A stretch of 64,000 nt of DNA from IMG/VR virus record IMGVR_UViG_3300029288_000148, positions 1 through 64,000 of that record; one strand, given 5' to 3'. A program made the position numbers and the translations under genes. Shown here in pieces: positions 25,748 through 49,541 of this stretch. The notes beneath the pieces were generated by a model. The model was not told where the DNA came from. It worked only from the letters and a program-made list of their open reading frames with translations, and made no database searches. Each line of letters begins with the position of its first letter. Within the stretch, counting starts at the first letter, position 1. This stretch comes from a virus. Its lineage: Duplodnaviria; Caudoviricetes.

Positions 25748-28219
25748 CTATAAAGTAATTACTTCAATTATGTAATTCATCAAAACATCGTCCGTTGATG
25801 AGCTATCAACACTCACGGACATTATTATATTCCCCGAACTAAGAGAACTTGTTATTGTAATACCAACATTGTCGCCATAATATTCCACCGATTGATCTGT
25901 TAATGGGTTTTTGTTAATGATAAACACTGTCCCCATCTGGTCATTTGATCCTCGTCTTGCAGCATAGTCTATTATAACTGCGCTATCTGTTGATAAATTT
26001 CCTACGACAATATTGGTTACAGCTCCATAAGGAAGTATCCCTTCAGGAATGACAGGTTCAGGTTCTTCTTCAGGAAGAACATTCGTTATACAATTAATAC
26101 TATTCTGCTCAAATTGAGGATTCCCTCCAATTTCATCCCATGATACTCCATTGTCAACCGATCTCCAAATATCTCCGGTGTCATCACCTATTAAGATAAC
26201 TCCATCAGCAATATGCGTAGCGCATAGTATCGATGTGGCAATTCCCAAAACATTTATTTCTGTTGTAAAATCATCATCAGTATAACTTATGCTTTCAGTG
26301 TTACAGCTAAATAGTATCCTTGATCCATTTGCGCCAATTATGAAATTTACCTTATTACTACCAAAGCTTCCCATGTCTGCCCAACTCTCTCCTCCGTCAG
26401 CCGATCTCCATATATGACCATCAGTATCTCCCGCATATATATTTGATGAACTATCTGTATAGGCTGCAGAAAAACCACCTGCCTGTTTTAAGGAATAAGT
26501 TGCGCTATCAATAGTCCAATTATAAATACCTGTACTGGTAATAAGTATTACATTCGTTTCGTCAATGAAAGAAGATCCATAAAGTACTCCCAGATTTAAT
26601 CCGGAAGACTTAAATGTTGCTCCACCATCTATACTGTAATTAAGGTTCCCAAGGGCATCAGAAACTACAACTACCTCCTGAAATGCTCCGATGTGGTAAA
26701 TATGATCCGATCCGGCACTCCCAGCATAAGTATAATATCCTGTTGAATAGTTAATAACTCTGCCTTGGTCGGTGCTATAAATTATATCACCATTTCCAAG
26801 TCTTGCAAAACTTGTCGGATTGCCCAGATTAAAACTGCCTTCATTTACAAATGTTATTCCAACGTCAACGGATCTGAGAATTAATCCACCTATCGATGTC
26901 CCTGCCAAGATGAAACTTTCGGAATCGATACTCAGCGATTTAACAAGTCGAACATTGGCTACTACAAGATTTTTATCTAAATGTTCTGTTGTCCAAAAAA
27001 CTCCACTATTAGAAACAAGGTAAGGCATATAAATCTCTGTTTCATCAAACATTTCGCTTGTTGCAAAAAATGCAAATTCTTTTATACTGGAAAAAGAGGC
27101 ATCAATCTTATTTCTATATCCTCCCCCAAGCGCAGTAAATCCTGATTCGTTTGTTGCTCCGGTATTAGGGGCGTTCCAATGAACTAATCCAGTTTCCTTC
27201 ATCTTCCCGCCTGCGTTATATGCTCCACCAATCGCACTCGCTAATTTTGCCCAATCCTGTAATGTAGGAACTCTCCACCCTTCTTCATGAACACCATTAC
27301 GAAGCATATAGGCTATTCCCTTGGCATTTGTATAGGCATAGGCGCTATAGATAATGCCATAATCGCGATATGTAACCGGATCGTTATCATACCAACAATA
27401 TCCTCCATTATGCCCTGCACTGCCATCTTCTGCAAGCCAATCCGCATCTAAGGTAAGGTTTGGTATTGCTGTCCCGTCAGCGTATTTTGTGACTATTAGG
27501 TTTTCGATAAGCCAAACTTGGTTGCCAACAACAACTTCTGTGTAAATATTCCCATCCAGATCAGTAAGCACACCAATGTCAGCGTCTTTCAGCCAAAACG
27601 TAGCTTTCTCTTTTAAAAGCTTAAATATCGTATCAAACATTCCACAGGGAAGTGCGGTAAAATTACTTGAGTTATCTGCTAAAAGGTTTGGCGATGCCCA
27701 ATGAGTAAGTCCGGCCTCCTTCATCTTTGCCCCAGCCACTAATGCACCGCCAAGATATGACATCAATTCGTCAAAATCTGATTCAAAAGGCACCCTCCAC
27801 CCTGCAGGCGCAAAATCCCCTTGTTGTATCATATCCCAATTATAAAGCCCCCCACAGGACACCCTGTTTTCTTCATCATCATTAAATACTTTGCTCCCGG
27901 GATAATCAAAATCCCAATTCTTTCCCATCCATACCTGATCTCCAATTGCGACTTCCGGATAACCCTCGTAAATGAATTGTGATCCAATGGCCCCGCCATA
28001 ATAACCAGGAATAGAGGCGTCAATCAATAGCTCCACCTCTGCAAGTAAGGTTTCCATTAATCCAAACCCTTGCTGTTCGTCACTGGAAGCCACCCTTACG
28101 TTCAGGGCATCGAGATATTCTCCGTTTAAGAAATTCTCAACATCCTCTGGAGAATGATCTTTATTCATCCCCAGCGAAAAACGCCGCTCATCGTGATTTT
28201 GTCCCTGATTCTGCCTCAT
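25748..28219 (-). CDS. muzzle N-terminal fragment fused to two FISUMP (Fib_succ_major) domains, BNR beta-propeller and C-terminal beta domain
   Basis: FSLGMNKD..NGEYLDALNVRV muzzle N-terminus; IGDQVWMGKN/VGNQVWLIENL and GWRVP FISUMP motifs; repeated S.DGG.TW Asp-boxes. Confidence 0.75.
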   Translation of the reverse strand: MRQNQGQNHDERRFSLGMNKDHSPEDVENFLNGEYLDALNVRVASSDEQQGFGLMETLLAEVELLIDASIPGYYGGAIGSQFIYEGYPEVAIGDQVWMGKNWDFDYPGSKVFNDDEENRVSCGGLYNWDMIQQGDFAPAGWRVPFESDFDELMSYLGGALVAGAKMKEAGLTHWASPNLLADNSSNFTALPCGMFDTIFKLLKEKATFWLKDADIGVLTDLDGNIYTEVVVGNQVWLIENLIVTKYADGTAIPNLTLDADWLAEDGSAGHNGGYCWYDNDPVTYRDYGIIYSAYAYTNAKGIAYMLRNGVHEEGWRVPTLQDWAKLASAIGGAYNAGGKMKETGLVHWNAPNTGATNESGFTALGGGYRNKIDASFSSIKEFAFFATSEMFDETEIYMPYLVSNSGVFWTTEHLDKNLVVANVRLVKSLSIDSESFILAGTSIGGLILRSVDVGITFVNEGSFNLGNPTSFARLGNGDIIYSTDQGRVINYSTGYYTYAGSAGSDHIYHIGAFQEVVVVSDALGNLNYSIDGGATFKSSGLNLGVLYGSSFIDETNVILITSTGIYNWTIDSATYSLKQAGGFSAAYTDSSSNIYAGDTDGHIWRSADGGESWADMGSFGSNKVNFIIGANGSRILFSCNTESISYTDDDFTTEINVLGIATSILCATHIADGVILIGDDTGDIWRSVDNGVSWDEIGGNPQFEQNSINCITNVLPEEEPEPVIPEGILPYGAVTNIVVGNLSTDSAVIIDYAARRGSNDQMGTVFIINKNPLTDQSVEYYGDNVGITITSSLSSGNIIMSVSVDSSSTDDVLMNYIIEVITL

Positions 28220-30824: not shown

Positions 30825-30908
30825 TTACGCCTTCCATCCTCCCCAGAAAGCAAGTATCAGCAAAAAGACAAACAGTCCTCCGGTAATGTATTTAAGTAGC
30901 TTTGTCAT
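30825..30908 (-). pseudogene. second truncated paralogue (27 aa) of the same protein
   Basis: MTKLLKYITGGLFVFLLILAFWGGWKA* then TAA; 21-nt near-identity (1 mismatch) between 30829-30849 and 30649-30669. Confidence 0.45.
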
Positions 30909-31165
30909 TGCGTTTCTTTTGTATGCTCATCAAGTTTCTTTTCAATCCGGTTAAGCTGTTCCAGTACAAGGTTAAACTCATCACGGCTCACTTTTGATCC
31001 TTGCAGTCTTTCGATGTTGTTTTCGTTGTGAGTCGCCCGAAGCTCAAGTGTAGCTGCTTTTGCGGAAATTACACCCCATGTTGTTACCCCTGCAAGGATA
31101 ATTGATACCAAGCCGGATAATGCCCACTGAGGAAGGGTTACATACTTTTCTTTGTCAAGTGTCAT
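30905..31165 (-). CDS. single-TM coiled-coil lysis-cassette protein
   Basis: One TM then heptad coil ending RIEKKLD. Confidence 0.5.
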   Translation of the reverse strand: MTLDKEKYVTLPQWALSGLVSIILAGVTTWGVISAKAATLELRATHNENNIERLQGSKVSRDEFNLVLEQLNRIEKKLDEHTKETQ

Positions 31166-31211
31166 CTTTAATTGTATTAATCATAATTACCGCAAATAGT
31201 TTTAAGTCATC

Positions 31212-31511
31212 TCACTTATTATTTATTCCTACCACTGTCGAATTATCCGGATTAAACACCTTCGCCACCTTTTTAAATAACATCTGTCCTGACATTCCCA
31301 AGACAACGGAGCTGATAAATGTGATAGTGTAAATAGATGCAATCTCTTCCTTTGCATAAACAAGCACTCCTCCGCAAATAATGTTAAGTAAAGTCGATCC
31401 TATGTTCTGTTTAAAGAAAATAGAAAACTTATAATCCGGTTTTGTTAGTGCCTCATTGAACCCTAAAAGAAGGCTTATGGCCGCACCAATTAAAATAGCT
31501 ACGTAATACAT
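31212..31511 (-). CDS. putative holin (about 3 TM)
   Basis: Hydrophobic segments; lysis cassette context. Confidence 0.5.
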   Translation of the reverse strand: MYYVAILIGAAISLLLGFNEALTKPDYKFSIFFKQNIGSTLLNIICGGVLVYAKEEIASIYTITFISSVVLGMSGQMLFKKVAKVFNPDNSTVVGINNK

Positions 31512-31513
31512 CG

Positions 31514-31915
31514 CTAAACCTCCTTTTCGATCCCTAAAGCCCGGAGAATCATTTTCACAAGCTCTATATCAAAGAATCCATTAGCAACTAATCCGGCAGC
31601 TACACCATATATAATAGTATTAAGCCAGCTAAGTTCAGCCATAAACCCGATATTAACAAGATTGCCGACAATTATAAGTACGAGTGCCACTAACCATGCT
31701 ACTATCTGTTTCATGAATCCGGCAGTCTTAAATAGTGTATTAAGGAAAGCTGCAAGGAATACAGTTACAGCCGCTACCCCTGCAAGGGAGCCAAGCCATA
31801 CGTTTATATTTGCAAACAGTTCCAACCAGTTTGTAGGAGGATCAACAGCCTGACCGAAAGTCGGGAGAATAAGAACAAACATCAAAGCAAAAAACATCAT
31901 TAACTTTTTCATCAT
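31514..31915 (-). CDS. multi-TM membrane protein with signal peptide, holin-like
   Basis: MMKKLMMFFALMFVLILPTFG|Q then about 3 TM segments; GLVANGFFD motif. Confidence 0.55.
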   Translation of the reverse strand: MMKKLMMFFALMFVLILPTFGQAVDPPTNWLELFANINVWLGSLAGVAAVTVFLAAFLNTLFKTAGFMKQIVAWLVALVLIIVGNLVNIGFMAELSWLNTIIYGVAAGLVANGFFDIELVKMILRALGIEKEV

Positions 31916-31936: not shown

Positions 31937-32026
31937 TCAACCTTTATAAATTATTAATAAAACAATCGCTGCAATTATACCAAGCATTACTGCCCATTCG
32001 CTTATTTCTCTAAGTGTGCTTTTCAT
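31937..32026 (-). CDS. 29-aa TM peptide
   Basis: Hand-translated MKSTLREISEWAVMLGIIAAIVLLIIYKG*; ATGA overlap with upstream gene. Confidence 0.45.
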   Translation of the reverse strand: MKSTLREISEWAVMLGIIAAIVLLIIYKG

Positions 32027-32475
32027 ACGATCACAACTTTAAACTTTTCATCCATTACATCCCAAAGCGCATCCATAGCTTTTGAGCTATCGGCAACGTC
32101 AAGCATCCCGTCCTGATTCAGGTCATAGAAATATAAACCTGGAAGAATACACCCCTCTGAATCTTTCTGGTACCCTGCTACGAAGTTTCCCACATGAACG
32201 AGTATTCCACTACGTCCACGGACATAAAGCAACCTGAACACCTTTCCTTTTGTCTGGTGCAGTTCTTTAACTGCATTGTATTCTCCTTCCGGGATGCAAC
32301 TCACATTACGTTGATTTGAAACCCAAGGTAATTCCAATGCCTTACACCTATAAAGCAATTCCTCTCCGTTCATCGCATAAACTGATGACATAGTTAAGTT
32401 TGGCTTGTATGTCCGACTTAATAAGAGCTTTTTTGATATGTCGCTAAAGGTTGACATATTTATATTCTTACCCAT
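32023..32475 (-). CDS. DUF5675-family protein, probable endolysin
   Basis: LELPW..N..NVSCIPEGEY, RSGILVHVGN, DSEGCILPG; next to holin-like genes. Confidence 0.75.
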   Translation of the reverse strand: MGKNINMSTFSDISKKLLLSRTYKPNLTMSSVYAMNGEELLYRCKALELPWVSNQRNVSCIPEGEYNAVKELHQTKGKVFRLLYVRGRSGILVHVGNFVAGYQKDSEGCILPGLYFYDLNQDGMLDVADSSKAMDALWDVMDEKFKVVIV

Positions 32476-34172
32476 TTACCATTATAAAATACCCACTTAA
32501 TGCCATTTTTAACAAATGATGTTGTCTTTGTTGTAAACTCTAAATCTTCACCATATTGTGTGCCAACTTCATTTGTGGCATAAGCTCGAACATGAAATGT
32601 TGATCCTTCGGTTAATCCAGTAATATTCGCCACATAAGCACCTGTTGTGCCACTAACAGTAACAACATTATCAGTCAAATCAGGATTTGCGCCAGTACTC
32701 CAAACAACACCCCTTGCAGAAATAGTTCCACCACCATCATCATATACATTCCCACCGACTGAGCAAGTTGTTTTTGACGGATATGCACCAGTTGTAAAAA
32801 TGACAAGTGGTTCAATCTCCTCTCCGGGATCAGGATCATTATATTCGTAAGCCCCTATACTTGGGGGAGTACCCCATAATATTGAATCGGCATCATAAGT
32901 TAATCCAACATCAACTCCTATTCCCCGTAATTGAGATGTAGATGATAATCGCAAAAACTTATTATAGCAATCATTATCAGGTAGTGATCCATCGGCTTGT
33001 CTTGGTGCAGTTAATCCAGTTGAATCAATTGATTGAAAATCCAAATTATTAACGGTAAGTCCTGATATGTCCCATGAGTTATGGTCATGCGTATATACAG
33101 CACCAGATCGGGTAAAAACACTTCCTGATACATTCCCGTATGACACATTATTTCGAAATATCCTCAAGTATTCATCTGCATCATACCCAGTACTTAACCT
33201 ACTTATATTAAATCCAGAACCTTTATTTGCGTAGGATATATTGTTATAATATTGAGAAATTAATATATAATTACCATACCACTCATTGGTAAAGAAGCCA
33301 CTACCGTCATTATATAAAGCAAAACAATTATATACCTCACGCCTTAATTCATCAGAGGGCTGCTCTATCCAGCCTAATTTATAGCCTGATCCATCGGGCA
33401 TAAATATGTTCGTATTGCAAAATGACCAGCACCCTACACATTTAATATAACCACATGATGATACATTAAATCCCTGATCTGAACAATGCCATGCTCTGCA
33501 ATTATAAAAATATGTCTCACCTGTAGTACTGGTACGATTAACTACATCAAAACCAGTACCAGCATTTCCAGTAGTAAGACTATCACAAATATTATATGCA
33601 TCACAATTAGTAAAAACATGTTGACCATCATTTGAACCTGAAAAGGATGAATAAAATCCAGCACCCTCACAGTTGTAAGCAACACAATTTTCCACTGCCA
33701 CAATTCCGTAATTAAAAAACCAACCTACTCCTTGAGAACCTGTCTCGGCAGTATATTGTTTAAAATTTCTTACTGTTAATCCCTGAAATTTTACATAATA
33801 AATAGGATTACTTGAATCTCCACGTATGCCAACATTTTTATAACCAACAGGGCTTAATGGATCAGAATTACTGCCATCAAGTATGGGCGTTTCTCCGGGA
33901 TAATTAATATAAACTATCCAATTATCTGTTGTCCCATCACGAGTTGGACATATCCCTGCTCCATTTGTTACGGTTGTCGGATATACACCTCCTCTTATAA
34001 AAACAGTATCCCCTGGATTAACATTAGTTGTAGTCATAGCATATTGCCATGTTGCCCATGGACTCGCTAATGTTCCAGCATTGCCATTATCCCCCGTTGT
34101 AGCTACATAATAAGTATTTGCACGAACAATGGCATTGAAACAAATAAATAATATTATTAATATTTTTTTCAT
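32460..34172 (-). CDS. secreted PL9-like right-handed beta-helix lyase with C-terminal FN3-like domain
   Basis: Signal MKKILIILFICFNAIVRA (true start 34172); TYYVATTG; NC.A[YW].C coils; DGSGYKLG; LTAPRQADGSLP; PSIGAYEY; VRAYATN..GTQYG. Confidence 0.7.
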   Translation of the reverse strand: MKKILIILFICFNAIVRANTYYVATTGDNGNAGTLASPWATWQYAMTTTNVNPGDTVFIRGGVYPTTVTNGAGICPTRDGTTDNWIVYINYPGETPILDGSNSDPLSPVGYKNVGIRGDSSNPIYYVKFQGLTVRNFKQYTAETGSQGVGWFFNYGIVAVENCVAYNCEGAGFYSSFSGSNDGQHVFTNCDAYNICDSLTTGNAGTGFDVVNRTSTTGETYFYNCRAWHCSDQGFNVSSCGYIKCVGCWSFCNTNIFMPDGSGYKLGWIEQPSDELRREVYNCFALYNDGSGFFTNEWYGNYILISQYYNNISYANKGSGFNISRLSTGYDADEYLRIFRNNVSYGNVSGSVFTRSGAVYTHDHNSWDISGLTVNNLDFQSIDSTGLTAPRQADGSLPDNDCYNKFLRLSSTSQLRGIGVDVGLTYDADSILWGTPPSIGAYEYNDPDPGEEIEPLVIFTTGAYPSKTTCSVGGNVYDDGGGTISARGVVWSTGANPDLTDNVVTVSGTTGAYVANITGLTEGSTFHVRAYATNEVGTQYGEDLEFTTKTTSFVKNGIKWVFYNGKWVRI

Positions 34173-34173
34173 A

Positions 34174-36429
34174 TTAAAATGGATAGGTTTTCCCATTACC
34201 GCCATTATATAATTCTGTTATTTCGTCTGCGGTTAAAGCACGCGACCATACACCCACTTCGTCTACATAAGAACCAACCATTGATCCATAATCATTTCTA
34301 CCTATTCTAAAATTATTTACATTAGTTACCGGAGTTAAAGTAAACGCATCTGTAATAGGTTCTCCACCATTAAGATACAACTTATGTATATTGTCATTAT
34401 CGCTCCAAGTATAAACAATATGATACCATTGTCCTGTTGTAAGTGTTGTTGTATGTTCAAATTGATCACGTGCGCTTGAACTTGCTATTTGCGCCCTTAT
34501 TGTATATGGAGCTGTTGTTCCGTATAACCATATATGATACCCTTCACGATCAGTAGTAAAATTTATTTTGCCTACTAAATTATTTGCTGATGTCGTTGGA
34601 TCAGAAACGCAATAAACCCACACAGATATTGATCCCTCGCCTCCTACTGATAAATCCTCTGTATTTCCCATGTCAAAGTAGCCAGTATTGCTAAATAAAA
34701 CACTTCTTCCACTTATAGCTTCAGCCTGATCTTCGGTTACAGTTCCTCCTTCAGTACCATCATTACTTCCAATTTCATCAGTAGCAGTTGTCCCAGATGT
34801 ATGATCTAATTTATAATAAGCTACCAGTCCGGTAAGTAAGGATGATTGGTTATTATTAGTTACTGAAGTATTTGTAAATGGTGCAGCGTGATAACCTGCG
34901 CTATCCTGTAAATAAGGCCAGTCTCTCGCATAACTAAGCGTATATGTTAAGTTTTTATGTGAGATACTATCAAGTGCAATAAATAGACTATCATGTCCTA
35001 TACTTATGCCATTCAAACCATAGGTTGTTCCTTCTTCTTTAAGTGTAAACGCTGTTTGTGGTGGCACACTATCTTGATCAAGATACTTATTCCAGACAAC
35101 CAAAACAGTATCATCCGCAAATTCCCCTACTTCTATTTTACTAATTATAGGTCTATACCCATTGTTAGTTACCGTCTTATTTGTAAATGACTTGACTTCA
35201 TTTTCGTCACTATCCTGCAAAGGGCCTAATAATGGTTTTGTGTATGCAAGTTTTAATGTTGTGTCTGCTTGTGGAGTTTGATCAAGTACGAGAAATAGTG
35301 TATCATTTGATATGGATACATTTGTAACATCAATAGTATCAACTTCTGATCCATATTCAAAATAAAAAGTTGTAGTTGCCGGAATAGAATCAGCGACTAA
35401 ATTTTCAGACATTACAACTCGTAAAAGCCTTGCAGCACTATCACCAACCTCTGCACTTTCAAATGTTGGTGGCAATACAGATGTTATCTCTGTTTGTAAA
35501 TCAGTAAATGCAGTAAGGAGCGAATCATGTCTATAATAAATATATGTGCTATCCCATGCAACATTAGCCATTATGCTATCGACTTGTCGCTGAGTGTAGT
35601 ATTGACCTCTTGTAGTAACAAGTGTATCACCAACCAAAACTGCAACATCTCCTAAATCTTCAATATCCGAAGCAATAATATGTACTCCTAATGTATCAGC
35701 ACCATCATAGAAAGCAATTCGACTATTAACTAATCCTATTGAGTCAATCGAAAGAGAAGTACCTCCAACATTCAAAGAATTAGCTGTTACAAGCCCTGAT
35801 GTAGTTATTGTTGTCGGAGTCGATATACTTCCTCCTATTGTCAGGTTATTACTTCCAAGTGCTAAATCTGCACCAACTGTTAAAGTACCGTCTGAATGAG
35901 TTATTGTTTCGGCATTGTTGAATCTGATAACACTCGCTGAATCTAAATCAACATCATCAAAAGGATAAGTTGCACTACCTAAATCTATTGTTCCTGCTGC
36001 ATTTGGAAGAAGGTTAGTGTTTATTGCTACACTGGCAAGATTTGATAATGCTTTATTGGCATAAGCGGCATTTGCTTCACTTGTTAGAATATAATTAGTC
36101 AACATACCTGCTGTATCTGCCCTGTTAATATATGGCACAAGCATAGTATTTGTATCTGCAACCATTACAACTAATGGACGTAATACATTTAAACTATCTT
36201 CTATTTCGCCTCTTACATCAAGTATAGATGCACCAGTAGTAGTATAAGAAGCACCACCAATGTATATTACAACTTCTCCTGTCACTAATTTAACTGAATC
36301 AATTAAATCAAGTGTATTGCCACCTATTCGTATCCCACCATTGGCATGTATAGGATATTTAAATCTGTTTTGCCCATAAGCACCTATGGCAGCAAGCATA
36401 AATAATATTGTAATTAAAATCTTTTTCAT
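34174..36429 (-). CDS. signal-peptide tail-fibre-like protein with SwmB-like Ig repeats and C-terminal LamG domain
   Basis: MKKILITILFMLAAIGAYG|Q; PTFESAEV..V.IS..TL.L repeats; LVAYYKLD..SISVWV..WYHIVYT..DEVGVWSRALTADEI. Confidence 0.7.
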   Translation of the reverse strand: MKKILITILFMLAAIGAYGQNRFKYPIHANGGIRIGGNTLDLIDSVKLVTGEVVIYIGGASYTTTGASILDVRGEIEDSLNVLRPLVVMVADTNTMLVPYINRADTAGMLTNYILTSEANAAYANKALSNLASVAINTNLLPNAAGTIDLGSATYPFDDVDLDSASVIRFNNAETITHSDGTLTVGADLALGSNNLTIGGSISTPTTITTSGLVTANSLNVGGTSLSIDSIGLVNSRIAFYDGADTLGVHIIASDIEDLGDVAVLVGDTLVTTRGQYYTQRQVDSIMANVAWDSTYIYYRHDSLLTAFTDLQTEITSVLPPTFESAEVGDSAARLLRVVMSENLVADSIPATTTFYFEYGSEVDTIDVTNVSISNDTLFLVLDQTPQADTTLKLAYTKPLLGPLQDSDENEVKSFTNKTVTNNGYRPIISKIEVGEFADDTVLVVWNKYLDQDSVPPQTAFTLKEEGTTYGLNGISIGHDSLFIALDSISHKNLTYTLSYARDWPYLQDSAGYHAAPFTNTSVTNNNQSSLLTGLVAYYKLDHTSGTTATDEIGSNDGTEGGTVTEDQAEAISGRSVLFSNTGYFDMGNTEDLSVGGEGSISVWVYCVSDPTTSANNLVGKINFTTDREGYHIWLYGTTAPYTIRAQIASSSARDQFEHTTTLTTGQWYHIVYTWSDNDNIHKLYLNGGEPITDAFTLTPVTNVNNFRIGRNDYGSMVGSYVDEVGVWSRALTADEITELYNGGNGKTYPF

Positions 36430-36441
36430 ATTATCTTTAAA

Positions 36442-36792
36442 TTATATTACTGATGTACTATAAACTGTTTCCCAATCTGTATCTTCAACCCCATCAAAAC
36501 CTAATGGCGTTAATTCATTATCTATATAATAAACACATGCTCTTACCTGTTGCCTGTATCCTGCCACTCCATCATCAATAGTCATTATTATACTATCCTC
36601 ATCAAGTTCAAGTTGTACTATATTAAGTTCCCATGTAACACCACCGTCTGAAGAAAAGTCAATAACATACATTCCATCCCTTTCTCCTTTTCTATACCAA
36701 CATAGTCCACTCGAAACAATAGTCCAGGGTGATGCTTCTCCAACTTGTCTGCTAAAAGGTATCCCTATTGCTGTTCCTATACAAATACTCAT
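36442..36792 (-). CDS. small putative virion protein with internal duplication
   Basis: IGTAIGIPF N-terminus; two copies of YR...R...Y.ID....G...WE. Confidence 0.5.
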   Translation of the reverse strand: MSICIGTAIGIPFSRQVGEASPWTIVSSGLCWYRKGERDGMYVIDFSSDGGVTWELNIVQLELDEDSIIMTIDDGVAGYRQQVRACVYYIDNELTPLGFDGVEDTDWETVYSTSVI

Positions 36793-36795
36793 GGT

Positions 36796-38559
36796 TTATT
36801 GTATAATTATTATAAATTTCCCGTCTGTTGTTTTCATAAACCTTGTTCTTATTGCGTCAGGTGTTGCAAAAACTTTATTCCCTGTTGTTGGAGTACCATA
36901 ATATTCATAAGCACCTATATCAACCTCTGTTCCTTCCCATGGTACTTCTTTTTGTCCATAATCGCTTGTCAACCCCACGTCTATACCCGTATCAATGGCG
37001 GGAGAAAAAGATTGTAATTCATAACTCCCCGCCTGAAACATTGGCGCATCCTGAATATTATCTTCTATAATATCTCCACTTATATCTGCACTATTCCATG
37101 TAGCAACTGAAATATTGGGTGTGCCCCGATAATAAATTATATTTGTTGCACCTAAAGTATATATAAGATTGTTTTTAAATACATTATCTAAAACTGTTGC
37201 TCCACTTGATACATAAATTGCAGTGTCATCACAAGCATAAATAATATTATTGATAAACTCATTATCATACTTATCAGTATAAGTTGCACCATGTATAAGC
37301 CCAATGCCATAATCTTCACAATGAGCAATTATATTATTATAAAACTTCATATTATTTGCCGTTCCTGGCGTAAGTCCTCCTATCCATAAACCGCCTCCCG
37401 CATTAATATTTTTAGGGTAATGTGCTGGTGCATTAACTGTATCAATGATATTATAATAGAACTTTAAATTCTCGCCTTGTACCTGCATTCGTGCCTGTAT
37501 ATTATGTATATAGTTACGATAAATCTCATTACCATCACCATTAGTATAAAGCACACCAAGCCAACCTCCATAATCAACATCAGGAGCAGTTATCTCATTA
37601 TCATAAACTTTTACATTGTCAATCCTATCTGCGTCTGTACTTTCAAGAACAATAGATGTATGTCCCCAATTTTTGAAGTAATTATCATGTATAGACCATG
37701 TATTTGATATACCACCAACCTTAATGCCATCTCCGGTATATTTTGCTTCCCAATCTGAAACAAATGTATTTTCTGTATCAAAATTGCAGTTCTTTATTTC
37801 TACATCTCTTGTATCAACAGATGCATAAGCATTTATTCCATAAAATCCTTTAATATCGCAACTATCTATCACTATTCCATCTGCATCATCAACTATCACC
37901 CCTATATATGCATGTTCAATATCAAGATTATTAATAGTAACATAATTAACCCCATTGAGATATATCCCTGAATATGATGATGTTGCCTTTTCAATATAAG
38001 TAAATGTCGTTGCTGGATTTGTTTCAGAATAAATAAATAAACTATCATCACCATTCCAATACCATGGTTTTGATGCTGTTGGTGGGAATGATTCAGGTCT
38101 CTCAACTTCAATACTATCAATCCATAATCTTATTGCTGTCCAATAAGAAGGTGTTCTTATTTCTTCCTGATACCATACGTTAGGTCTTGTTGCCTCCCAT
38201 GGCCTTGACCAATTACTCGCACCCGACCAACCAACAACTGTATCCCTTGCTGTAATAATAGGCTTTTCTCCCGTACCATAAGATGTTATAACAATTGGAT
38301 GTCCGGAAGTTCCACTTCCACTAAGCCTAAGTGTTGTATCTGAGTGTATTGATAATATCCATTTAGCATCACAATTAAAATGTATAGAATCATCCGGCTG
38401 ATATGTAACAGATATTAATTGTCTGATAGTTTTCCATGCCTGAGCAGGACTTTCGCCATCATTACCATCATCTCCTGAATTAGATATATAATAATTTTTA
38501 TCCTGACTATTCAGAATCAGTCCAATAAAAAGAAATAATATGATAAATACATTTCTCAT
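36796..38559 (-). CDS. secreted right-handed beta-helix protein (choice-of-anchor Q-like tail)
   Basis: MRNVFIILFLFIGLILNS|Q; YYISNSGDDGNDG; IYRNYIH/FYNNII coils; SPAIDTG..DIGAYEY. Confidence 0.7.
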   Translation of the reverse strand: MRNVFIILFLFIGLILNSQDKNYYISNSGDDGNDGESPAQAWKTIRQLISVTYQPDDSIHFNCDAKWILSIHSDTTLRLSGSGTSGHPIVITSYGTGEKPIITARDTVVGWSGASNWSRPWEATRPNVWYQEEIRTPSYWTAIRLWIDSIEVERPESFPPTASKPWYWNGDDSLFIYSETNPATTFTYIEKATSSYSGIYLNGVNYVTINNLDIEHAYIGVIVDDADGIVIDSCDIKGFYGINAYASVDTRDVEIKNCNFDTENTFVSDWEAKYTGDGIKVGGISNTWSIHDNYFKNWGHTSIVLESTDADRIDNVKVYDNEITAPDVDYGGWLGVLYTNGDGNEIYRNYIHNIQARMQVQGENLKFYYNIIDTVNAPAHYPKNINAGGGLWIGGLTPGTANNMKFYNNIIAHCEDYGIGLIHGATYTDKYDNEFINNIIYACDDTAIYVSSGATVLDNVFKNNLIYTLGATNIIYYRGTPNISVATWNSADISGDIIEDNIQDAPMFQAGSYELQSFSPAIDTGIDVGLTSDYGQKEVPWEGTEVDIGAYEYYGTPTTGNKVFATPDAIRTRFMKTTDGKFIIIIQ

Positions 38560-40379
38560 TCAGTAAATGGATGGGTTGTTGTTGAATTATATAACAAGGT
38601 TACATCGGCTGGTGTAAATGCCTGATGCCATATAGCGCATTCATCCATATAACCACGAAAGTTTAATGCACCATTTGTAGTATAATTACCGAAATATATA
38701 TTAGAATTAGATGAGTGTAATGTTCCGCTAAATGTATAATTAGCATCATAAGCTGTCGTTACGTCAACATTATTAACATATATTAAATTAGTTTTTCCAT
38801 CTCCCCTATGAACGAAAACTACATGATATACAGTACTATCTGAAATTGCTGCAGTAGATATAGAGCTATATTCTGTTCCAGTAGAATTATATGTCCTAAA
38901 CATTATTTTACCATCTGTATCTATATAAGCTCTATGAGTAAGTACTGGTGTTGCAGTATTTGTTATTGCAAAAATATAATCTGCTGTTGAAGCACCTATT
39001 GAATCAGCCCATATCCATGCAGATACTGTAAATAATGCATCAGGATTAACATTAACATTATAAGGCACTCTAATCTGACTTTTATATCCAATATGCCTAT
39101 TGTAATTATACTTTGCGTGTGCCGTAGTTGCTGTTGTGGCAGCACCTAAAACAGCTTCCTGAATATCATTTGCATCCGCTCCCGCTGTACCGCTTGTCTC
39201 ATCAAGTTTATAATAAACAGCTAAACTATCAAGTAATGGTGATTCCTGACCCTCTAATGACAAATAATTCCATGAAATAGGTTCTCTTATTCGTATTTCA
39301 ACCCATTCATCATCTGTCCAATCAGGTCTCACAAATATTGTATCTTCATTTATACGATAACTACTATCTCTTGTATTTATAGCACCCGTATGAAACCAAT
39401 GTAAATCACCTCGTCTATATACATCAAGCTGTTTACCTATAAATGCTGAATGAATAATAGTACTATCCCCCGAAGATGGAGCACCTGTGGTTGTCCCTAT
39501 AATAAACTTTAATATATCACCCGTAAAAGAGCCACCACCACCTGATCCTATATATCCCTGGACATAAGAGGGTGTAGCAACATAATCATTATCACTTGCA
39601 CCATCTGTTGTATCTGCTAATGCAATACCTATTACTGCATTATCTAACCTTTCCTGTATAGTATCATTAACTAATTCTGCTGTTTGTAAGCGTGGCATAT
39701 AATTACCCTCAGATACTCCGGTACTATCTGCTGTTCCTACCGTTGCCGTTGCTGTCCGGAAGTCTGCCGCACTTAATGCATTAACTCCATTTGTAGCTGT
39801 TATTTGCGGAAAGGTTATTGCTGAGGGATTAGGCAGCATAAAGAATGCTGATCCAACTGTTGTTGCTCCAAGGGATGTTCGTCCGTCTGCAGCGATAAGA
39901 TCAGTATTACCACCATCCCATTTAAGCCTATCCGTGTAGGCTGTGTTCCAGTTTGCAACTGGCATCGCAACACCACTAATTGTAGGTACGGTTGATATTT
40001 CTATGCTGGTAAACCACCCCTTTAAAATCCTATCTGCTATTGTCCCTATTGATGAGGCACCTAAATTACTATAATAATTTACCGCCGTTAATCCTGTCAC
40101 ATAAATAGACGATACTCGATCTATTGAATTACCTATTCCCCCTGTTATTAATAAATTATTACTACCCAAATCAAAATTTCCTCCGGAAAGCGTCAATTTG
40201 TTTATTGACTGAGTAAGAGACAAATCGTTATTGAAATTGATATTGGCTCCCGATCCCTGTAGATAAAATGTCGGTGTTGTCTTTTTTAGGGTTAAATTAG
40301 ATTCCATAAGCCTGGTTGATTGACAATAAGCCATGATCCCTACAAAAAACAATATGAATAGGAAAATCAGTTTTTTCAT
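38556..40379 (-). CDS. signal-peptide tail-fibre-like protein with C-terminal LamG domain
   Basis: MKKLIFLFILFFVGIMAYC|Q; phage fibre motif NWNTAY..GRTSLG.TTVG..PNPSAITF; YYKLDE..FTVSAWI..MDECAIW. Confidence 0.7.
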   Translation of the reverse strand: MKKLIFLFILFFVGIMAYCQSTRLMESNLTLKKTTPTFYLQGSGANINFNNDLSLTQSINKLTLSGGNFDLGSNNLLITGGIGNSIDRVSSIYVTGLTAVNYYSNLGASSIGTIADRILKGWFTSIEISTVPTISGVAMPVANWNTAYTDRLKWDGGNTDLIAADGRTSLGATTVGSAFFMLPNPSAITFPQITATNGVNALSAADFRTATATVGTADSTGVSEGNYMPRLQTAELVNDTIQERLDNAVIGIALADTTDGASDNDYVATPSYVQGYIGSGGGGSFTGDILKFIIGTTTGAPSSGDSTIIHSAFIGKQLDVYRRGDLHWFHTGAINTRDSSYRINEDTIFVRPDWTDDEWVEIRIREPISWNYLSLEGQESPLLDSLAVYYKLDETSGTAGADANDIQEAVLGAATTATTAHAKYNYNRHIGYKSQIRVPYNVNVNPDALFTVSAWIWADSIGASTADYIFAITNTATPVLTHRAYIDTDGKIMFRTYNSTGTEYSSISTAAISDSTVYHVVFVHRGDGKTNLIYVNNVDVTTAYDANYTFSGTLHSSNSNIYFGNYTTNGALNFRGYMDECAIWHQAFTPADVTLLYNSTTTHPFTE

Positions 40380-40690
40380 AACGTAATGATTGATAAGTTG
40401 TAATTGAAAGTAATATCATCTACGGATGCGTTATCAACTGTACAGTTTAACCTGAACACACCTGCATTATTGTCTGCGGCTATCGAAAGCCCCACATCAT
40501 CGCCAAATGAATCAGGGTTATAATCCGGAGCGTCAAGCGCTCCTTTATTTAGGATGCTAAAACGCCCTGCCCTCCTTAAAGCACCTCGTATCGCCGACCA
40601 TGCAACTATTATCCCATGATCCGTATTTGATGCACCAACATTTATGTTTGTTACAGCGTTGTGAGTGAGCGTATCATGTAATGTTGCCAT
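40376..40690 (-). CDS. small beta protein paralogous to the C-terminal domain of 25748-28219
   Basis: Manual alignment AVTNI.VG..TD..RG..NK..GD.VG..VD..DD..NY..ITL. Confidence 0.65.
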   Translation of the reverse strand: MATLHDTLTHNAVTNINVGASNTDHGIIVAWSAIRGALRRAGRFSILNKGALDAPDYNPDSFGDDVGLSIAADNNAGVFRLNCTVDNASVDDITFNYNLSIITL

Positions 40691-40697
40691 AAGAATA

Positions 40698-41027
40698 TTA
40701 CTTTAAAAAGAATACTTGAAACTTACATCCGGCAGCAGGAACTAATTTCGTAAACCGTCCCGGGAAAAATATATTGTAAGGATAGGTGTATGTCAAATAC
40801 TTTGCCGCTACGGGTGTCGATGCTCCTGCTTTCCCACCATGAGCAATAGTTGTTTGCTCCTCCATTTCATCGAAGGTGCCGCCTGCCGCATCTAAGCTTA
40901 TGAAAGTAGTTACAATCCTCCCTCCGAGGTCTTCATTTACCCCTCCTTCAATAATATCAAAAGCTTCGGGGTTCCCTGCACCTCCGGCTATTATCTGTTT
41001 AGGGTCTTTAAAGTTTTGGTATCCCAT
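40698..41027 (-). CDS. small putative virion protein
   Basis: C-terminal FPGRFTKL..G motif of small jelly-roll virion proteins. Confidence 0.5.
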   Translation of the reverse strand: MGYQNFKDPKQIIAGGAGNPEAFDIIEGGVNEDLGGRIVTTFISLDAAGGTFDEMEEQTTIAHGGKAGASTPVAAKYLTYTYPYNIFFPGRFTKLVPAAGCKFQVFFLK

Positions 41028-42280: not shown

Positions 42281-43660
42281 TTAGGAGGGTTCCATAAGAA
42301 GAAACTGGTTTCCACCACGGAAATGTGCGCCGATATGTGCACGCATATAAGTGTTCCTGCTGTCAAATTCTGTGACTTTCAGACCTTCGCCTGCGCCACC
42401 TACCTGCCATACTTCCATCCTGCGGTTATACTTACCAAGACCACGGTAACGGCATCCTATTGATGCAACCATATTACCGGAAACAGGATCCTTACGTCTG
42501 TTGATAGGCATCCAAATACCTAACTGCGGAGCCTCATATCCTGCGGCACCATAGAGTTTCGGATTATTGAAAACGCCCATCCTTTTCATAAGGAACGTCC
42601 TTTCGGACTTCGTAAGGTAAGTAAAGTTGACCGATGCACTCAGAGCTTCATTGCTGTTGAAAAGCACCGAATTAGTTGCCTGTTTTGCATAATTGATGTT
42701 TGTGTTGGCAAAATAGGTAACAAGTGAATTTTCAATGTCCTGATGAAGTGTTATCCCCAAGAGGCCAAGAATGTAATTCCCTGCATGTTCACGGTCAAGG
42801 GTATTGTCCATTTCGTCAAATTCATCAATGTCAAATGCCCCTGATGTATATGACTGTTCGTTTCCTACCCTGCGGATATATGGTACCAGACCTTCGGTTG
42901 TCTTAATCGGCCTTCCGGTATCTGGGTCAATAAGTCCGGTGGTATTGGTTGTGATCTTGTTCCACAGAAGTGCACCGTCAATTTTCAGTGCCATTCTGTA
43001 GTCAATGTCAACCTGACCAAGAAAATAATATGCGGGAATAGCCTGTCCTCTGGATGTCACATTAAACCATGTCTGGTTCACCATTTCTGTTCCGGTGTTA
43101 CCAATGGTTTCTTTGATGATCTGAGCCACATTGTCATATCTCCATACTCCCCGAAGGGCTGCGTCCGGCTGTCCTGATCCTTCTGACCAAGCGTCGGTAA
43201 AGATCACAAGCTCATCACCTGCTGTAAGTGCAGGAAACTGATCAGAAACCTCATTGGGTTCGCAAGTGATTATCGGTGCTGTCGGATCGGTAACGTCAAT
43301 GTCAACAATCGATCCCGGTACTTCGTTCTGGAATAATATCTGATCCCAAAGACGAGGATAATAATTGTTGTTTACGTCAAGGTCAATAGTGTCAAGCGTA
43401 AATGAAATAGGATCGCCGACTGCCGGCTGTACCACATTCTCTTTTACGTGAATTATTTCATGGATACGGTTTTCTTCCCAGTGTCCATATTCATCCAGCG
43501 ATACTTGTTCTTCAAATCCCATGGATCTGAGTAGCTGGAAATAAGATGCTCCCTGATCTCCAAAACGGCTGAAAAGCACGTTCTGATTTTCTGGCTTGTG
43601 AATATCAAAGCCTGATACGATGTCAGAGGCGTATATTTGTGCAATAGCTTCTGGTCCCAT
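42281..43660 (-). CDS. major capsid protein (crAss-like HK97 fold)
   Basis: HKPE..SRFGDQ..GHWEENR; YDNVAQIIKE; KTTEGL; follows portal and scaffold; 459 aa. Confidence 0.85.
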   Translation of the reverse strand: MGPEAIAQIYASDIVSGFDIHKPENQNVLFSRFGDQGASYFQLLRSMGFEEQVSLDEYGHWEENRIHEIIHVKENVVQPAVGDPISFTLDTIDLDVNNNYYPRLWDQILFQNEVPGSIVDIDVTDPTAPIITCEPNEVSDQFPALTAGDELVIFTDAWSEGSGQPDAALRGVWRYDNVAQIIKETIGNTGTEMVNQTWFNVTSRGQAIPAYYFLGQVDIDYRMALKIDGALLWNKITTNTTGLIDPDTGRPIKTTEGLVPYIRRVGNEQSYTSGAFDIDEFDEMDNTLDREHAGNYILGLLGITLHQDIENSLVTYFANTNINYAKQATNSVLFNSNEALSASVNFTYLTKSERTFLMKRMGVFNNPKLYGAAGYEAPQLGIWMPINRRKDPVSGNMVASIGCRYRGLGKYNRRMEVWQVGGAGEGLKVTEFDSRNTYMRAHIGAHFRGGNQFLLMEPS

Positions 43661-47288: not shown

Positions 47289-49541
47289 TTAATGAATCCT
47301 TGCGTACATGGGATATTTCCTTTTTTTGACAAACTTATCAAGTGAATATTCCTCATTATCAAGTTTGGCTATCTCGTCATAGATGCCATGGGTGCCAAGA
47401 AGCGCATAACCTCCGGCTGTAAATAAGTCCCAATTGGTCATATCCTCTGGTCCCTCAATATCTCTGCACTCCTCGAGTACCTCGGAATGCTTCTCTATGT
47501 CGGCCTCATTTTCGATCCATGTCATATACTCCGTGAAAATATCCTGCTTGATCTTTTCTCCGGTCTGCCCTCCTGGTGTCTTGCCAAACTCAAAGGTTTT
47601 TGGATCCACTTTGTAAAGCAAGTATCCGCTATATCCACGACTGTCAAAATAGTCCCAAAGGAATGGCACGTTTATTTCCGGGAACATCTGCACCCCGTAA
47701 TAAACGCACATCATCAGCATATCTTCGCCATAAAGGTTTTTGTCAAAGGTTCTGTTTGAATAAGTACAGGCAAAGGATCTTTTCATAGAAAAATCGCCAT
47801 CTTTTATCTGGCCCTTCTTAATGACTGCGCCACCACCATTGGATTTTCTATTTTGTTCTGTCTTGTTAAACTTAAATGGGTCTCCTCCGGCCACTCCCCA
47901 TTGCATGTTCCCAGGCTTCCAGCACTCTTCCTCGTCACTCCACCATTTCCTGTTTGATTCGCCCTCATTTAGCTGGTGACTAACAATAAACTTGCCATTT
48001 GTTTTCGGTACAAAGACTACTTTTGTGTCTTTTTCGTTGTTCTTCCAGACAAAATCTCCCCTTACAGTAAGTCCCTTGGCAAAAGACAACTCATCAATGT
48101 ATGATTCAAGTTTGTGCATGTTAAACCCGGAAGATTTTGCTGCTGTCCTGAAACATTCCGCAAACCGTAATGGGTAAAGTCTTATTTCTTCTGATAAACC
48201 CTCCTGATCCCCGGCATCGATATACCCTTTGCGCCGGTTCATAAGGTATTCTCTCGCCCCAATCCTTCTTCCAATAAACTCTGCCTGCTGTTTTGTAGGA
48301 TTGTGAATAATACTCATGCCATACTCGTCAATAAACCCCTGTAATCCATCATCTGCTGGCATAAATAATACTGCAAGCCCTGATCGTGTCTGTCCATTGG
48401 GTGTTCTTTCATAATAATTACTCATCTGGCACTGATGCTTGAATATCCGACCACCCCCACGCTCCATCTCGCCGACTGTTGAGGTTTTTATGGTAAAACC
48501 AATGATCTCCGATCCCATTACAAGGCACTCTTTGACAACCGTGTGCCGGTCCCAGCACGAAAGACCTTTTTTCAGCTTTCCAACCTCATCGTCATGATGA
48601 AAATAAAGCTTATCCCCGTCATACGCTGACGGATCGGCCATCTCGAAGTTTATTCCTGATTCAAGACCAAGCTCTGACATTGATAATGATCCCCGGGAGG
48701 ATAGTCTTTTTGCCGGTGGTGCAAAGGAAAGCTCTGCTTTTGGAGAAGTAGATCCTTCATAGTTCGGTTTAAAGAAGAATGGCAGTTTCTTCCATGGGCC
48801 TACAAGGTGCCTTAGAAAGCATTTGCGGGCCTGAACATCGTTCATGGACTGAATACCTCCCCACGCACCAAGCGTTCGGCTTATAATCTCGTAGTTAATA
48901 CATTCAGCCTTATATGTCGCTCCTTCACGTCTGTGTTTAGGGTAGTTGAAACCATAAAAGAGCCTTTTGCCAAATTCTATCCATTCATAGTCGCCGTATT
49001 TGTTTTTTACAGCAAACCCCTTTGCATTACACTCAGGGGCTTTTGTCTCAGTGAATATTTTCCGGGCAAATAAGAAGAACCTTCGGTCCCGGTCCCTGTA
49101 TTTTGGCAGTCCAACATCAATATTCCACCATCCGCAATAGAAATAATGCCATCCATCAATGTATGTAGGCTTGCCATTATTGAAAAACCAGTATCCATTT
49201 AGCCTGTGGTACCATGCTTTCTCAATAAACTCGATCTCTTTGTCATAAATGTCCTTATTATTCTCAAGCTCCTCCCAAATCTCATCAAGGGTTTCAAATT
49301 TTGACTGTAATTCCTTTAGTCTTTTCGGTATTTTGGGCGGTTGCCACTTCTGTTGCTCTGCCGGTACGCCAAATCCATCGATCAAATGATATTCCGGTGG
49401 CGCGGGAAGGTCTATTCGTATTGGAGTAAGGTCTTTATCGTCCGTGTTTACCCATAAATACCTGTCGGCCTCGTCATACTCCCCAAGTATCCGAGGGTCA
49501 ACTTCCTTTCCATAGCGTTTTATGAGATATAATGGATTCAT
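47289..49541 (-). CDS. terminase large subunit (crAss-like)
   Basis: KHRREGATY Walker A variant, YDGDKLYFHHDDEVGK Walker B, STVGEM, nuclease AGGDPF, NWDL. Confidence 0.9.
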   Translation of the reverse strand: MNPLYLIKRYGKEVDPRILGEYDEADRYLWVNTDDKDLTPIRIDLPAPPEYHLIDGFGVPAEQQKWQPPKIPKRLKELQSKFETLDEIWEELENNKDIYDKEIEFIEKAWYHRLNGYWFFNNGKPTYIDGWHYFYCGWWNIDVGLPKYRDRDRRFFLFARKIFTETKAPECNAKGFAVKNKYGDYEWIEFGKRLFYGFNYPKHRREGATYKAECINYEIISRTLGAWGGIQSMNDVQARKCFLRHLVGPWKKLPFFFKPNYEGSTSPKAELSFAPPAKRLSSRGSLSMSELGLESGINFEMADPSAYDGDKLYFHHDDEVGKLKKGLSCWDRHTVVKECLVMGSEIIGFTIKTSTVGEMERGGGRIFKHQCQMSNYYERTPNGQTRSGLAVLFMPADDGLQGFIDEYGMSIIHNPTKQQAEFIGRRIGAREYLMNRRKGYIDAGDQEGLSEEIRLYPLRFAECFRTAAKSSGFNMHKLESYIDELSFAKGLTVRGDFVWKNNEKDTKVVFVPKTNGKFIVSHQLNEGESNRKWWSDEEECWKPGNMQWGVAGGDPFKFNKTEQNRKSNGGGAVIKKGQIKDGDFSMKRSFACTYSNRTFDKNLYGEDMLMMCVYYGVQMFPEINVPFLWDYFDSRGYSGYLLYKVDPKTFEFGKTPGGQTGEKIKQDIFTEYMTWIENEADIEKHSEVLEECRDIEGPEDMTNWDLFTAGGYALLGTHGIYDEIAKLDNEEYSLDKFVKKRKYPMYARIH

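Follow-up and report, generated by a model that had tools for sequence, protein, structure and literature searches.

Predicted Sec leaders and O-glycosylation sequons on fibre-like proteins in the virion module of a crAss-/Pachyviridae-like phage

In the textbook account the assembly of tailed phages is wholly cytoplasmic, and we know of no host-mediated glycosylation of their receptor-binding parts. The nearest cultured counterpart of the locus described here belongs to Cellulophaga phage phi18:3 (Pachyviridae, NC_021794), in which three consecutive genes (gp085-087; 547, 785 and 559 aa) encode proteins with Sec-type leaders and Gln at position +1, one of them fibre-repeat-like and one beta-helix-like, directly upstream of holin-like genes and an endolysin. 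GenBank lists gp085, gp086 and gp087 as virion structural, structural and tail protein, respectively, "based on experimental MS/MS proteomics", and we found no discussion of their leaders in print. Here we analyze a block of four large open reading frames (ORFs) at 32460-40379 on the minus strand of IMG/VR record IMGVR_UViG_3300029288_000148, a complete phage genome of 75,772 bp with direct terminal repeats, of which the first 64 kb (positions 1 to 64,000) form the stretch studied (the window). The four ORFs lie between the capsid genes and the lysis/neck genes, each begins with a predicted Sec/signal peptidase I (SPI) signal peptide (leader), and two of them are fibre-like proteins related to families rich in the sequon D-(S/T)-(A/I/L/V/M/T).

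Both hallmarks of these proteins are known from Bacteroidota, as the sequon of general O-glycosylation and as the SPI Q-rule, which concerns Gln at +1 (PMC12871550; PMC5837995; PMC10653852). Sequon sites are used nearly fully in non-cytoplasmic Bacteroidota proteins, engineered sites are glycosylated, and the sequon is enriched in exported host proteins (PMC12871550, a 2025 review). The substrates so far are host proteins, and phages go unmentioned in that review (PMC12871550), whereas here the hallmarks stand on phage fibre paralogues among virion genes. The slot itself is familiar: the fibres of crAss001 (gp21-gp26 and gp29; PMC10172136) and those of phi14:2 lie in the same place, between head genes and lysis/ring genes, and the slot in the window is equivalent to that of crAss001 gp22-26 and to that of relatives' fibres. 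The repertoire of these two phages, with beta-helix tailspike-like enzymes, a lectin and branched multi-protein fibres, is also like that of the window, and the branched fibres of crAss001 dock on hubs or hexon pockets via short N-terminal segments (PMC10172136). No fibre cassette was seen at the equivalent place in the stretch of phi13:2 that was examined.

The initial annotation of the block, made from the letters alone, had held that all four ORFs start with signal peptides and that three have Gln right after the cut, and both points stand. We called leaders with a simple rule-based scan of our own for n-, h- and c-regions and by eye; the rule flags about 9 of the 92 ORFs in the genome, including all four. 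Proteins and loci of our comparison set carry P- and L-numbers, respectively, the window ORFs being P0001 to P0004 (Table 1). In each of the four N-termini a basic n-region leads into a hydrophobic core, 12-16 residues long and free of charges, and the cut site is of the small-x-small type, with predicted cuts at AYG↓Q in P0002, AYC↓Q in P0004, LNS↓Q in P0003 and VRA↓N in P0001, so that +1 is Gln in the first three and Asn in the last. The leaders are encoded at nt 40323-40379 (P0004), 38506-38559 (P0003) and 36373-36429 (P0002), while translation of P0001 probably starts at the 12th codon, nt 34172. In the AlphaFold2 model of P0004, residues 2-18 form a lone helix. The four whole proteins match no C-terminal sorting domain of the type IX secretion system (T9SS; TIGR04183/PF18962 or type B), nor do their last 130 residues at E≤10, and no leader contains a lipobox, the sole Cys of the P0004 leader being at -1 before Gln, where homologues have A, S or G. 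By known rules the four mature proteins would therefore be soluble in the periplasm.

To evaluate the sequons quantitatively, we compared each mature chain with 20,000 shuffles of itself. P0002 carries 20 sequons against 5.1 expected (P=5e-5), P0003 7 against 2.6 (P=0.013), P0004 8 against 3.6 (P=0.023) and P0001 4 against 2.1 (P=0.14). After correction for the 92 ORFs only the excess of P0002 holds; those of P0003 and P0004 are nominal and P0001 has none. The earlier counts are otherwise right, except that P0001 had been given three sites. The same counts in control proteins are 0 in the terminase, 0 in the portal, 1 in the major capsid protein (MCP) and 3, 2 and 3 in the muzzle ORFs, as had been noted, and all 20 sites of P0002 do lie ahead of its LamG domain (residues 44-509 and 580-737, respectively). 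Part of the P0002 excess falls in Ig-like repeats, whose strands often start with D-S/T-L.

The stronger evidence comes from homologues. An exhaustive search with residues 1-420 of P0004 returned 1384 homologues at E≤1e-3, and statistics were computed on the top 148 cluster representatives, 72 of them with leaders; the other 76 are leaderless and in many cases have classical tail-fibre N-termini. The observed-to-expected ratio (O/E) of sequons is 2.06 in the representatives with a leader and 0.94 in those without (Mann-Whitney P=2e-10), and it remains 2.01 and 0.92, respectively, outside the region homologous to the query. Five control motifs, among them the reversed motif, E/N-[ST]-h, D-[ST]-non-h and D-[AG]-h (h, hydrophobic), are flat. 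Gln closes the hydrophobic run in 62 of the 88 homologues that have a leader (70%, against a background of 2.3%); leaders are thus conserved, and obey the Q-rule, across dozens of distant homologues. Because leaderless proteins of the same phage lineage have a sequon O/E of 0.86, phylum-wide composition is not the cause of the excess. With residues 1-540 of P0002 as the query, nearly all homologues have leaders and a three- to fourfold sequon excess, while leaderless fibre homologues have none. The positions of the P0002 sequons are kept in 59% of aligned cells compared with 25% for the pooled control motifs (ten homologues, 34-53% identity), a figure that is indicative only, since the ten homologues are related. 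In these alignments the sequon excess tracks the leader, not the fold, and selection for sequon sites is evident at the sequence level. The proposal that such proteins are exported and O-glycosylated by the host thus gains good support from comparison.

Several observations on the homologues stand apart from this statistic. The sole clearly bacterial homologue, P0023 on a 719-kb bacterial contig, is a T9SS cargo with Por_Secre_tail and a beta-helix, and has 0 sequons against 4.6 expected. A C-terminal motif, G-R/N-K-P ... S-G-Y-K/R ... Y, ends many leader-bearing fibre homologues (P0009, P0013, P0014, P0016, P0022, P0077, P0089, P0119, P0127 and P0146), not those of the window. In L063, L069, L114 and about 30 similar loci, a fibre of 1100-1400 aa follows the tape measure protein (TMP) and proteins of 740 and 123 aa; a basic extension of about 45 residues precedes a leader-like or transmembrane segment at its N-terminus, and the fibre carries about 13 sequons against about 5 expected and is followed by two leader-bearing proteins and then by lysis genes. 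Such fibres may be a signal-anchor version of the same theme. A scan of IMG/VR with the N-terminus of P0002 found nothing.

What, then, are the four proteins? P0002 and P0004 appear from their domains to be fibre-like with LamG lectin tips. The Laminin_G_3 matches in Pfam confirm the tips first read by eye (P0002, E 5.5e-20, nt 34219-34692; P0004, E 2.9e-16, nt 38601-39080), and the NWNTAY..GRTSLG motif of P0004 (about nt 39714-39983) marks the domain shared by the 1384 homologues, a widespread phage-fibre domain that also occurs in leaderless fibres with typical tail-fibre N-termini. The SWM_repeat match of P0002 is weak. In the P0004 model a ConA-like jelly roll is confident and the C-terminal half matches ConA-like jelly rolls in the PDB, the matches being generic lectins; the shaft is of low confidence when modelled as a monomer, and the tip alone could be searched. 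In both fibre classes the mature N-termini are conserved and the tips variable.

P0001 and P0003, in turn, are by domain content tailspike-type beta-helix enzymes, P0001 being PL9-like, and the description of the set as fibre-like and built for glycosylation fits P0002 and P0004 and not these two, which show no clear sequon excess. P0003 matches Beta_helix in Pfam at E 3.8e-22 and choice_anch_Q with 30.3 bits on its C-terminal 130 residues and 27.3 bits over the whole protein (cut-off 25); its N-terminus resembles PDB 7v6m and lacto-N-biosidase. P0001 matches Pel9A-like_beta_helix (PF22842) at E 8.2e-13 with 48.5 bits (cut-off 25.2; about nt 33120-34121) and the PelN model with 134 bits, far under the equivalog cut-off of 740 bits; it has a BT0360-like N-terminal domain and an FN3-like domain of a kind common in secreted Bacteroidota enzymes. 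At the end of P0003 (36796-36840) lies a short strand, (N/D)GK-(F/I)-I-x-I-(I/V)-(Q/K), sometimes duplicated, that is common to leader-bearing beta-helix proteins of different phages (L053:8183-9655, L054:3185-4768, L056:10225-11583, L152:1808-4135 and P0178); P0001 has a related strand pair. This shared strand may be a docking strand or a new sorting signal.

PHROGs gave no match for the four ORFs or for the two small leaderless proteins of the block (Table 1), and the GenBank phage collection held no near or protein-level match for the block, P0004 having none and P0002 and P0003 only marginal LamG or N-terminal matches. No relative of P0004 was found in the species genomes searched for a host or prophage. 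A fibre-domain query of those genomes hit six contigs of metagenome-assembled genomes from mixed phyla; these are probably binned phage DNA and uninformative on the host.

Table 1. Features of the leader-bearing block and the adjoining lysis genes (window coordinates)
Feature	Position (nt)	Strand	Characteristics
104-aa leaderless protein	40376..40690	-	start overlaps upstream gene by a few bases; stop overlaps start of 607-aa fibre; candidate docking/adaptor domain
P0004, 607 aa	38556..40379	-	predicted leader, conserved N-terminal shaft, NWNTAY-type fibre domain, beta-sandwich, LamG; 8 sequons
P0003, 587 aa	36796..38559	-	predicted leader, right-handed beta-helix enzyme, choice-of-anchor-Q-like motif, C-terminal strand; 7 sequons
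116-aa leaderless protein ("stub")	36442..36792	-	small beta-rich domain; candidate adaptor between particle and exported fibre
P0002, 751 aa	34174..36429	-	predicted leader, conserved mature N-terminus, shaft, two Ig-like SWM-type repeats, LamG; 20 sequons
P0001, 581 aa	32460..34205	-	predicted leader, PL9/Pel9A-like beta-helix, FN3-like domain; 4 sequons, not enriched
DUF5675 protein, 150 aa	32023..32475	-	DUF5675 E 6.8e-20; start overlaps end of P0001; first gene of lysis block
Three small membrane proteins (133, 99, 86 aa)	30905..31915	-	hydrophobic N-termini; holin/spanin-like lysis block after the leader-bearing set

Nearly all window genes, the co-oriented, late block among them, lie on the minus strand. 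The phage is crAss-/Pachyviridae-like. Its terminase (47289-49541) is 26-31% identical to those of Cellulophaga, Maribacter, Tenacibaculum and Flavobacterium podoviruses, Pachyviridae included, the phi18:3 group supplying the nearest cultured relative; the portal gene matches phrog_6547, an MCP-like gene lies at 42281-43660, and further virion genes encode ring-type proteins, a split muzzle with FISUMP and carbohydrate-binding modules and a giant ORF of 3017 aa. Because of the terminase relatives, the Q-rule and the FISUMP domain, the host is most likely a member of Bacteroidota, probably Flavobacteriia-like. From a conserved 109-aa gene at 41027 to the DUF5675 gene the genes are tightly packed, neighbours overlapping by 4 nt or standing a few bases apart; scans for promoters and terminators found sites no more numerous than in shuffled sequence. 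The DUF5675 protein shares 32% identity (E 2e-9) with crAss001 gp30, which is annotated as an L,D-carboxypeptidase, and is likely an endolysin-type enzyme of this kind. The 133-aa lysis-block protein has a leader-like start followed by further transmembrane segments, and a homologue of the 99-aa protein comes after leader-bearing genes in L029. This layout agrees with phi18:3 gp088-092 and crAss001 gp27-30.

Some features of the wider genome may be recorded here. The G+C content of the 32000-40000 block is 0.34-0.38, compared with 0.40-0.43 in the flanking capsid and ring genes, which is consistent with a mobile cassette and hints at acquisition. Membrane-anchored proteins of lysis modules are sequon-rich in crAss001 (gp27, 4 against 0.3 expected) and phi14:2 (g076, 4 against 0.6), as is a 199-aa membrane-anchored window protein far from the lysis block (8871-9470, minus strand; 4 against 0.5, z=5); periplasm-facing, spanin-like proteins of Bacteroidota phages may generally be O-glycosylated. 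Two GT2-family glycosyltransferases (E 8.7e-12 and 3.4e-11) at 49548-50863 on the minus strand head a block of overlapping genes that reaches 52942, directly upstream of terL, a slot filled by different genes in relatives. We looked for a link between this cassette and the leader-bearing cassettes and saw none: the genes upstream of terL vary in relatives that have leaders as they do in relatives that lack them.

Comparison of related genomes shows that the block occupies a hypervariable cassette. In 51 IMG/VR loci with MCPs 59-91% identical to that of the window, a cassette of variable content lies between the capsid-side and ring/lysis genes; in many it encodes leaderless fibres with a common N-terminal anchor, and in L006, L010, L011, L014, L016, L029 and L051 leader-bearing proteins. 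P0002 homologues occur in the same slot of other crAss-like contigs (with Crass_capsid and crAss_MUZ_C), and L053 repeats the gene order of the window: leader-LamG fibre, leader-beta-helix protein, small leaderless stub and leader-fibre. Leader-bearing fibre genes also occur in unlike tail modules, namely in L058 after a baseplate-like cluster and, in the large siphovirus-like family of L063 and others, after the TMP, 740-aa and 123-aa proteins. In L035 (12810-13514, 18371-19183) and L050 (17715-18473, 19863-20585), repeated small ORFs with GIY-YIG-like N-termini lie between structural genes and are probable homing endonucleases.

The two small leaderless proteins bear on how leader-bearing fibres might reach a particle. 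The stub ends in a conserved LTP.GF.G.E.TDWE and has as its homologue in L051 the first ~100 aa of a leaderless beta-helix protein of 826 aa. In at least eight loci of diverse phages a leader-bearing gene lies directly downstream of the stub domain. The domain is fused to the C-terminus of a leader-bearing P0003-like enzyme (P0178, 87% identity), where the next gene encodes a P0002-like fibre, and also to the C-terminus of a siphovirus Dit (P0179/L152; phrog_33 1.6e-6, phrog_6305 1.9e-15). The order in L152 is TMP, Dit plus stub, a leader protein with a P0002-type N-terminus, a leader beta-helix protein and a Tal-like protein of 1297 aa, so that the leader-bearing genes stand between Dit and Tal. 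The muzzle-fused ORF of 823 aa at 25748-28219 ends in 95 aa with 37% identity to the 104-aa protein. The domain of that small protein lies directly upstream of a P0004-type leader-bearing fibre in L055, in two copies, and in L153 forms the C-terminus of a 238-aa leaderless protein whose N-terminus is weakly T4 gp9/gp10-like (phrog_958 1.4e-4, PF07880 0.014). With the same domain joined here to a virion hub and there, in another phage, to a predicted exported enzyme, and always beside an exported fibre gene, we read these arrangements as fusions of the Rosetta-stone type, by which the two domains would tie the exported proteins to the particle. Structure prediction does not add to this: the fold model of the stub (pLDDT 49.5) is unusable, and a complex prediction with three stubs and three copies of P0002 residues 21-130, run with our own alignments, scored 0.00, which carries no weight either way.

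P0003, the stub and P0002 share one reading frame (36427-36800), P0003 and the stub being split by TAA plus one codon and the stub and P0002 by TAA plus four codons; the P0003/stub junction exists as a true fusion in P0178. Stop-codon read-through as a general mechanism was rejected, the stops being TAA and the frames differing in L053 and L056.

Starting from the sequence features, their conservation, the leader-sequon statistics, the gene layout and the domain fusions, we infer the following biochemical steps. The block is proposed to be expressed late and to encode the tools of host recognition, namely two fibres with lectin tips and two glycan-degrading enzymes of the beta-helix type, delivered via the host Sec pathway and not folded in the cytoplasm. 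The layout suggests co-transcription and translational coupling with virion and lysis genes. The leaders would carry the chains across the inner membrane, signal peptidase I would cut them, and the N-terminal Gln of three proteins would, under the Q-rule, be cyclised by host glutaminyl cyclase to pyroglutamate (pyroGlu). In the periplasm the chains would fold and trimerise while host O-glycosylation would decorate 20 sites on P0002 and 8 and 7 on P0004 and P0003. Opening of the inner membrane by the holin, and then lysis, could bring the exported proteins together with finished particles, on which they would dock, a step that is the weakest of the series, via the leaderless adaptors encoded directly upstream and the matching C-terminal domain of the muzzle-fused ORF. 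Outside the cell, glycan-coated fibres would bind host surface glycans by LamG and the beta-helices would cut capsule or extracellular polysaccharide (EPS).

We consider it likely, from the sequence comparisons, that the four proteins are exported and the fibres O-glycosylated, and the host-recognition parts probably mature outside the cytoplasm. To the full reading, in which export, pyroGlu capping and O-glycosylation are followed by docking on the particle once the holin and lysis merge the compartments, we assign a probability of roughly 0.45. The fibres have shaft domains common to leaderless phage fibres and lie in the fibre slot of the virion module; in place of a cytoplasmic particle-anchor N-terminus they have a leader, with anchor-type domains on separate leaderless ORFs. 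Of the two destinations first envisaged, docking gains indirect support from the adaptor fusions and, by analogy, from phi18:3, while surface display has no known sorting signal on its side.

A number of facts weigh against docking or narrow the glycosylation argument. We know of no tailed phage that adds exported parts to its particle. The fibres of cultured crAss001 and phi14:2, verified by structure or mass spectrometry (MS), are leaderless, without sequon excess and assembled in the cytoplasm. The leader occupies the position of the virion-anchor N-terminus of leaderless relatives, as would be expected also if the proteins had been released from the particle, and the window phage may not need the four proteins to infect, since other adhesin modules are present on its muzzle ORFs. 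The stub and 104-aa domains could equally be carbohydrate-binding modules whose adjacency arose from gene fission. The phi18:3 proteins have no detectable homology to the window ORFs and are depleted in sequons (3 against 9.6 expected), the opposite of the window fibres, and their detection by MS is compatible with co-purification. In the closest relatives, nine leader-bearing cassette proteins have a sequon O/E of 0.97, and the beta-helix enzymes (P0001, P0003 and five relatives) carry about 25 sequons where 19.5 are expected. Because these enzymes, the nine cassette proteins and the phi18:3 proteins show no excess, the excess belongs to two fibre families and not to every exported phage protein.

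The main rival, a possible though somewhat doubtful account of the same data, is that the four proteins leave the cytoplasm as effectors and at no time become part of the particle: as lectin/depolymerase complexes they would act from within on nascent capsule, EPS and glycoproteins, and after lysis, as free glycan-shielded enzymes, they would strip neighbouring cells and debris, aiding release and preventing trapping or superinfection. Precedents are the exported Llp, Cor and Lom encoded beside receptor-binding genes, free phage depolymerases and periplasmic lyases such as AlgL. This account is topologically simple and makes the leader a substitute for the virion-anchor N-terminus of the relatives' fibres; it accommodates the alignment of P0001 with secreted bacterial PelN from the leader onward, the choice-of-anchor motif of P0003, which is typical of secreted bacterial proteins, the soluble periplasmic default set by the missing T9SS and lipoprotein signals, and the low G+C content of the block as a hint of acquisition. 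Leaders obeying the Q-rule are also known on uncharacterised proteins of Porphyromonas gingivalis prophages, which have been read as envelope modifiers (PMC10367356). However, it leaves unexplained the conserved pairing with leaderless stub and 104-aa domains, their fusion to Dit and to a connector-like protein, the leader-bearing genes between Dit and Tal, and the MS/MS-annotated leader-bearing virion proteins of phi18:3. Receptor masking with the specificity of the virion itself finds no support, since the genome holds no paralogue that is leaderless and has that LamG tip. For accessory genes, moreover, the block would be costly, at about 8 kb or a tenth of the genome.

That the fibres instead coat the infected cell, bound to the envelope by the domain after the leader and altering adhesion or excluding other phages, we regard as improbable. 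The model for this would be the mosaic adhesive trimer (MAT) fibres of Bdellovibrio, phage-tail-fibre-like trimers that combine a signal peptide, a conserved domain of ~130 aa after it, variable tips and a surface location (PMC10769870), and both window fibre classes likewise have conserved mature N-termini and variable tips. But the known routes to the Bacteroidota surface are T9SS, lipobox and beta-barrel, and the window proteins show neither a T9SS C-terminal domain nor a lipobox nor a beta-barrel. A complete set of lysis genes comes right after the block, so that a phage which appears lytic would have little time for a surface phenotype, and the leaderless adaptor partners would go unexplained. 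Least probable of all, and an outside chance, is that the leaders do not work, being docking helices or mis-called starts, and that the sequon excess is compositional or intrinsic to the fold. It is true that leaders were called by a simple rule and not by a trained predictor, that Ig-like repeats with D-S/T-L strand starts hold part of the P0002 excess, and that P is weak for three of the four ORFs. Yet Gln follows the hydrophobic run in 70% of 88 homologues against 2.3%, a preference that has meaning only where signal peptidase I cleaves; homologues that share the domains and lack the leader have no excess, control motifs of equal degeneracy have none either, and the N-termini of particle-docking crAss001 fibres are not hydrophobic.

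If the proteins are exported and glycosylated, phages of a phylum dominant in gut, soil and sea would bear glycan coats made by the host on those very parts that select it, with a bearing on host range, on resistance to proteases and immunity, and on adhesion to mucus or biofilm. Host O-glycosylation, glutaminyl cyclase and Sec would then be phage dependency factors and possible resistance loci, and pipelines that discard leader-bearing proteins as non-structural would miss receptor-binding proteins of many Bacteroidota phages. Should the proteins act as effectors instead, a widespread class of fibre and depolymerase paralogues that are exported would still represent a phage effector of a new kind. 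More broadly, and as a tentative generalisation, many Bacteroidota tailed phages could run a second, extracytoplasmic assembly line, on which Sec-exported, pyroGlu-capped, O-glycosylated fibres and tailspikes are clipped onto finished particles via leaderless Dit, connector or muzzle adaptors between holin triggering and rupture of the outer membrane; the glycans would possibly be edited by the phage's own glycosyltransferase cassette, and in one large fibre family the export route would be taken by about half of the clusters formed at 50% identity.

How does this locus compare with other known systems? In adaptor-plus-tailspike systems (gp37-type proteins of K1-5/SP6; the branched tailspikes of CBA120 and G7C), a small homologue of the anchor domain links separate spikes to the tail, and all partners are cytoplasmic. 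The stub stands to the 826-aa L051 protein in the same relation as adaptor to anchor in the K1-5/SP6-type systems; unlike there and in CBA120 and G7C, the presumed cargo here has a leader, and the adaptor role is a putative one. Sec-exported phage proteins encoded beside receptor-binding or lysis genes, namely T5 Llp, T1/phi80 Cor and lambda Lom and Bor, act on the host envelope, and Llp, Cor and Lom are small and without fibre or tailspike domains. Neither sequon richness nor pairing with adaptor domains is seen in any of these or in the Q-rule proteins of the P. gingivalis prophages. Target proteins of phage diversity-generating retroelements are stated to be without signal peptides. The MAT fibres show that such fibres can fold after Sec export; they differ in serving a bacterium's own surface, in belonging to another phylum and in having neither a sequon link nor a virion context. 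A full-text literature search found no account of phage virion modules with fibre or tailspike paralogues that are both leader-bearing and sequon-rich. To the systems above the window adds a set of four fibre and enzyme proteins, the adaptor-domain fusions and a family-wide statistic, and because cultured phi18:3 has the same architecture, the question can be tested directly.

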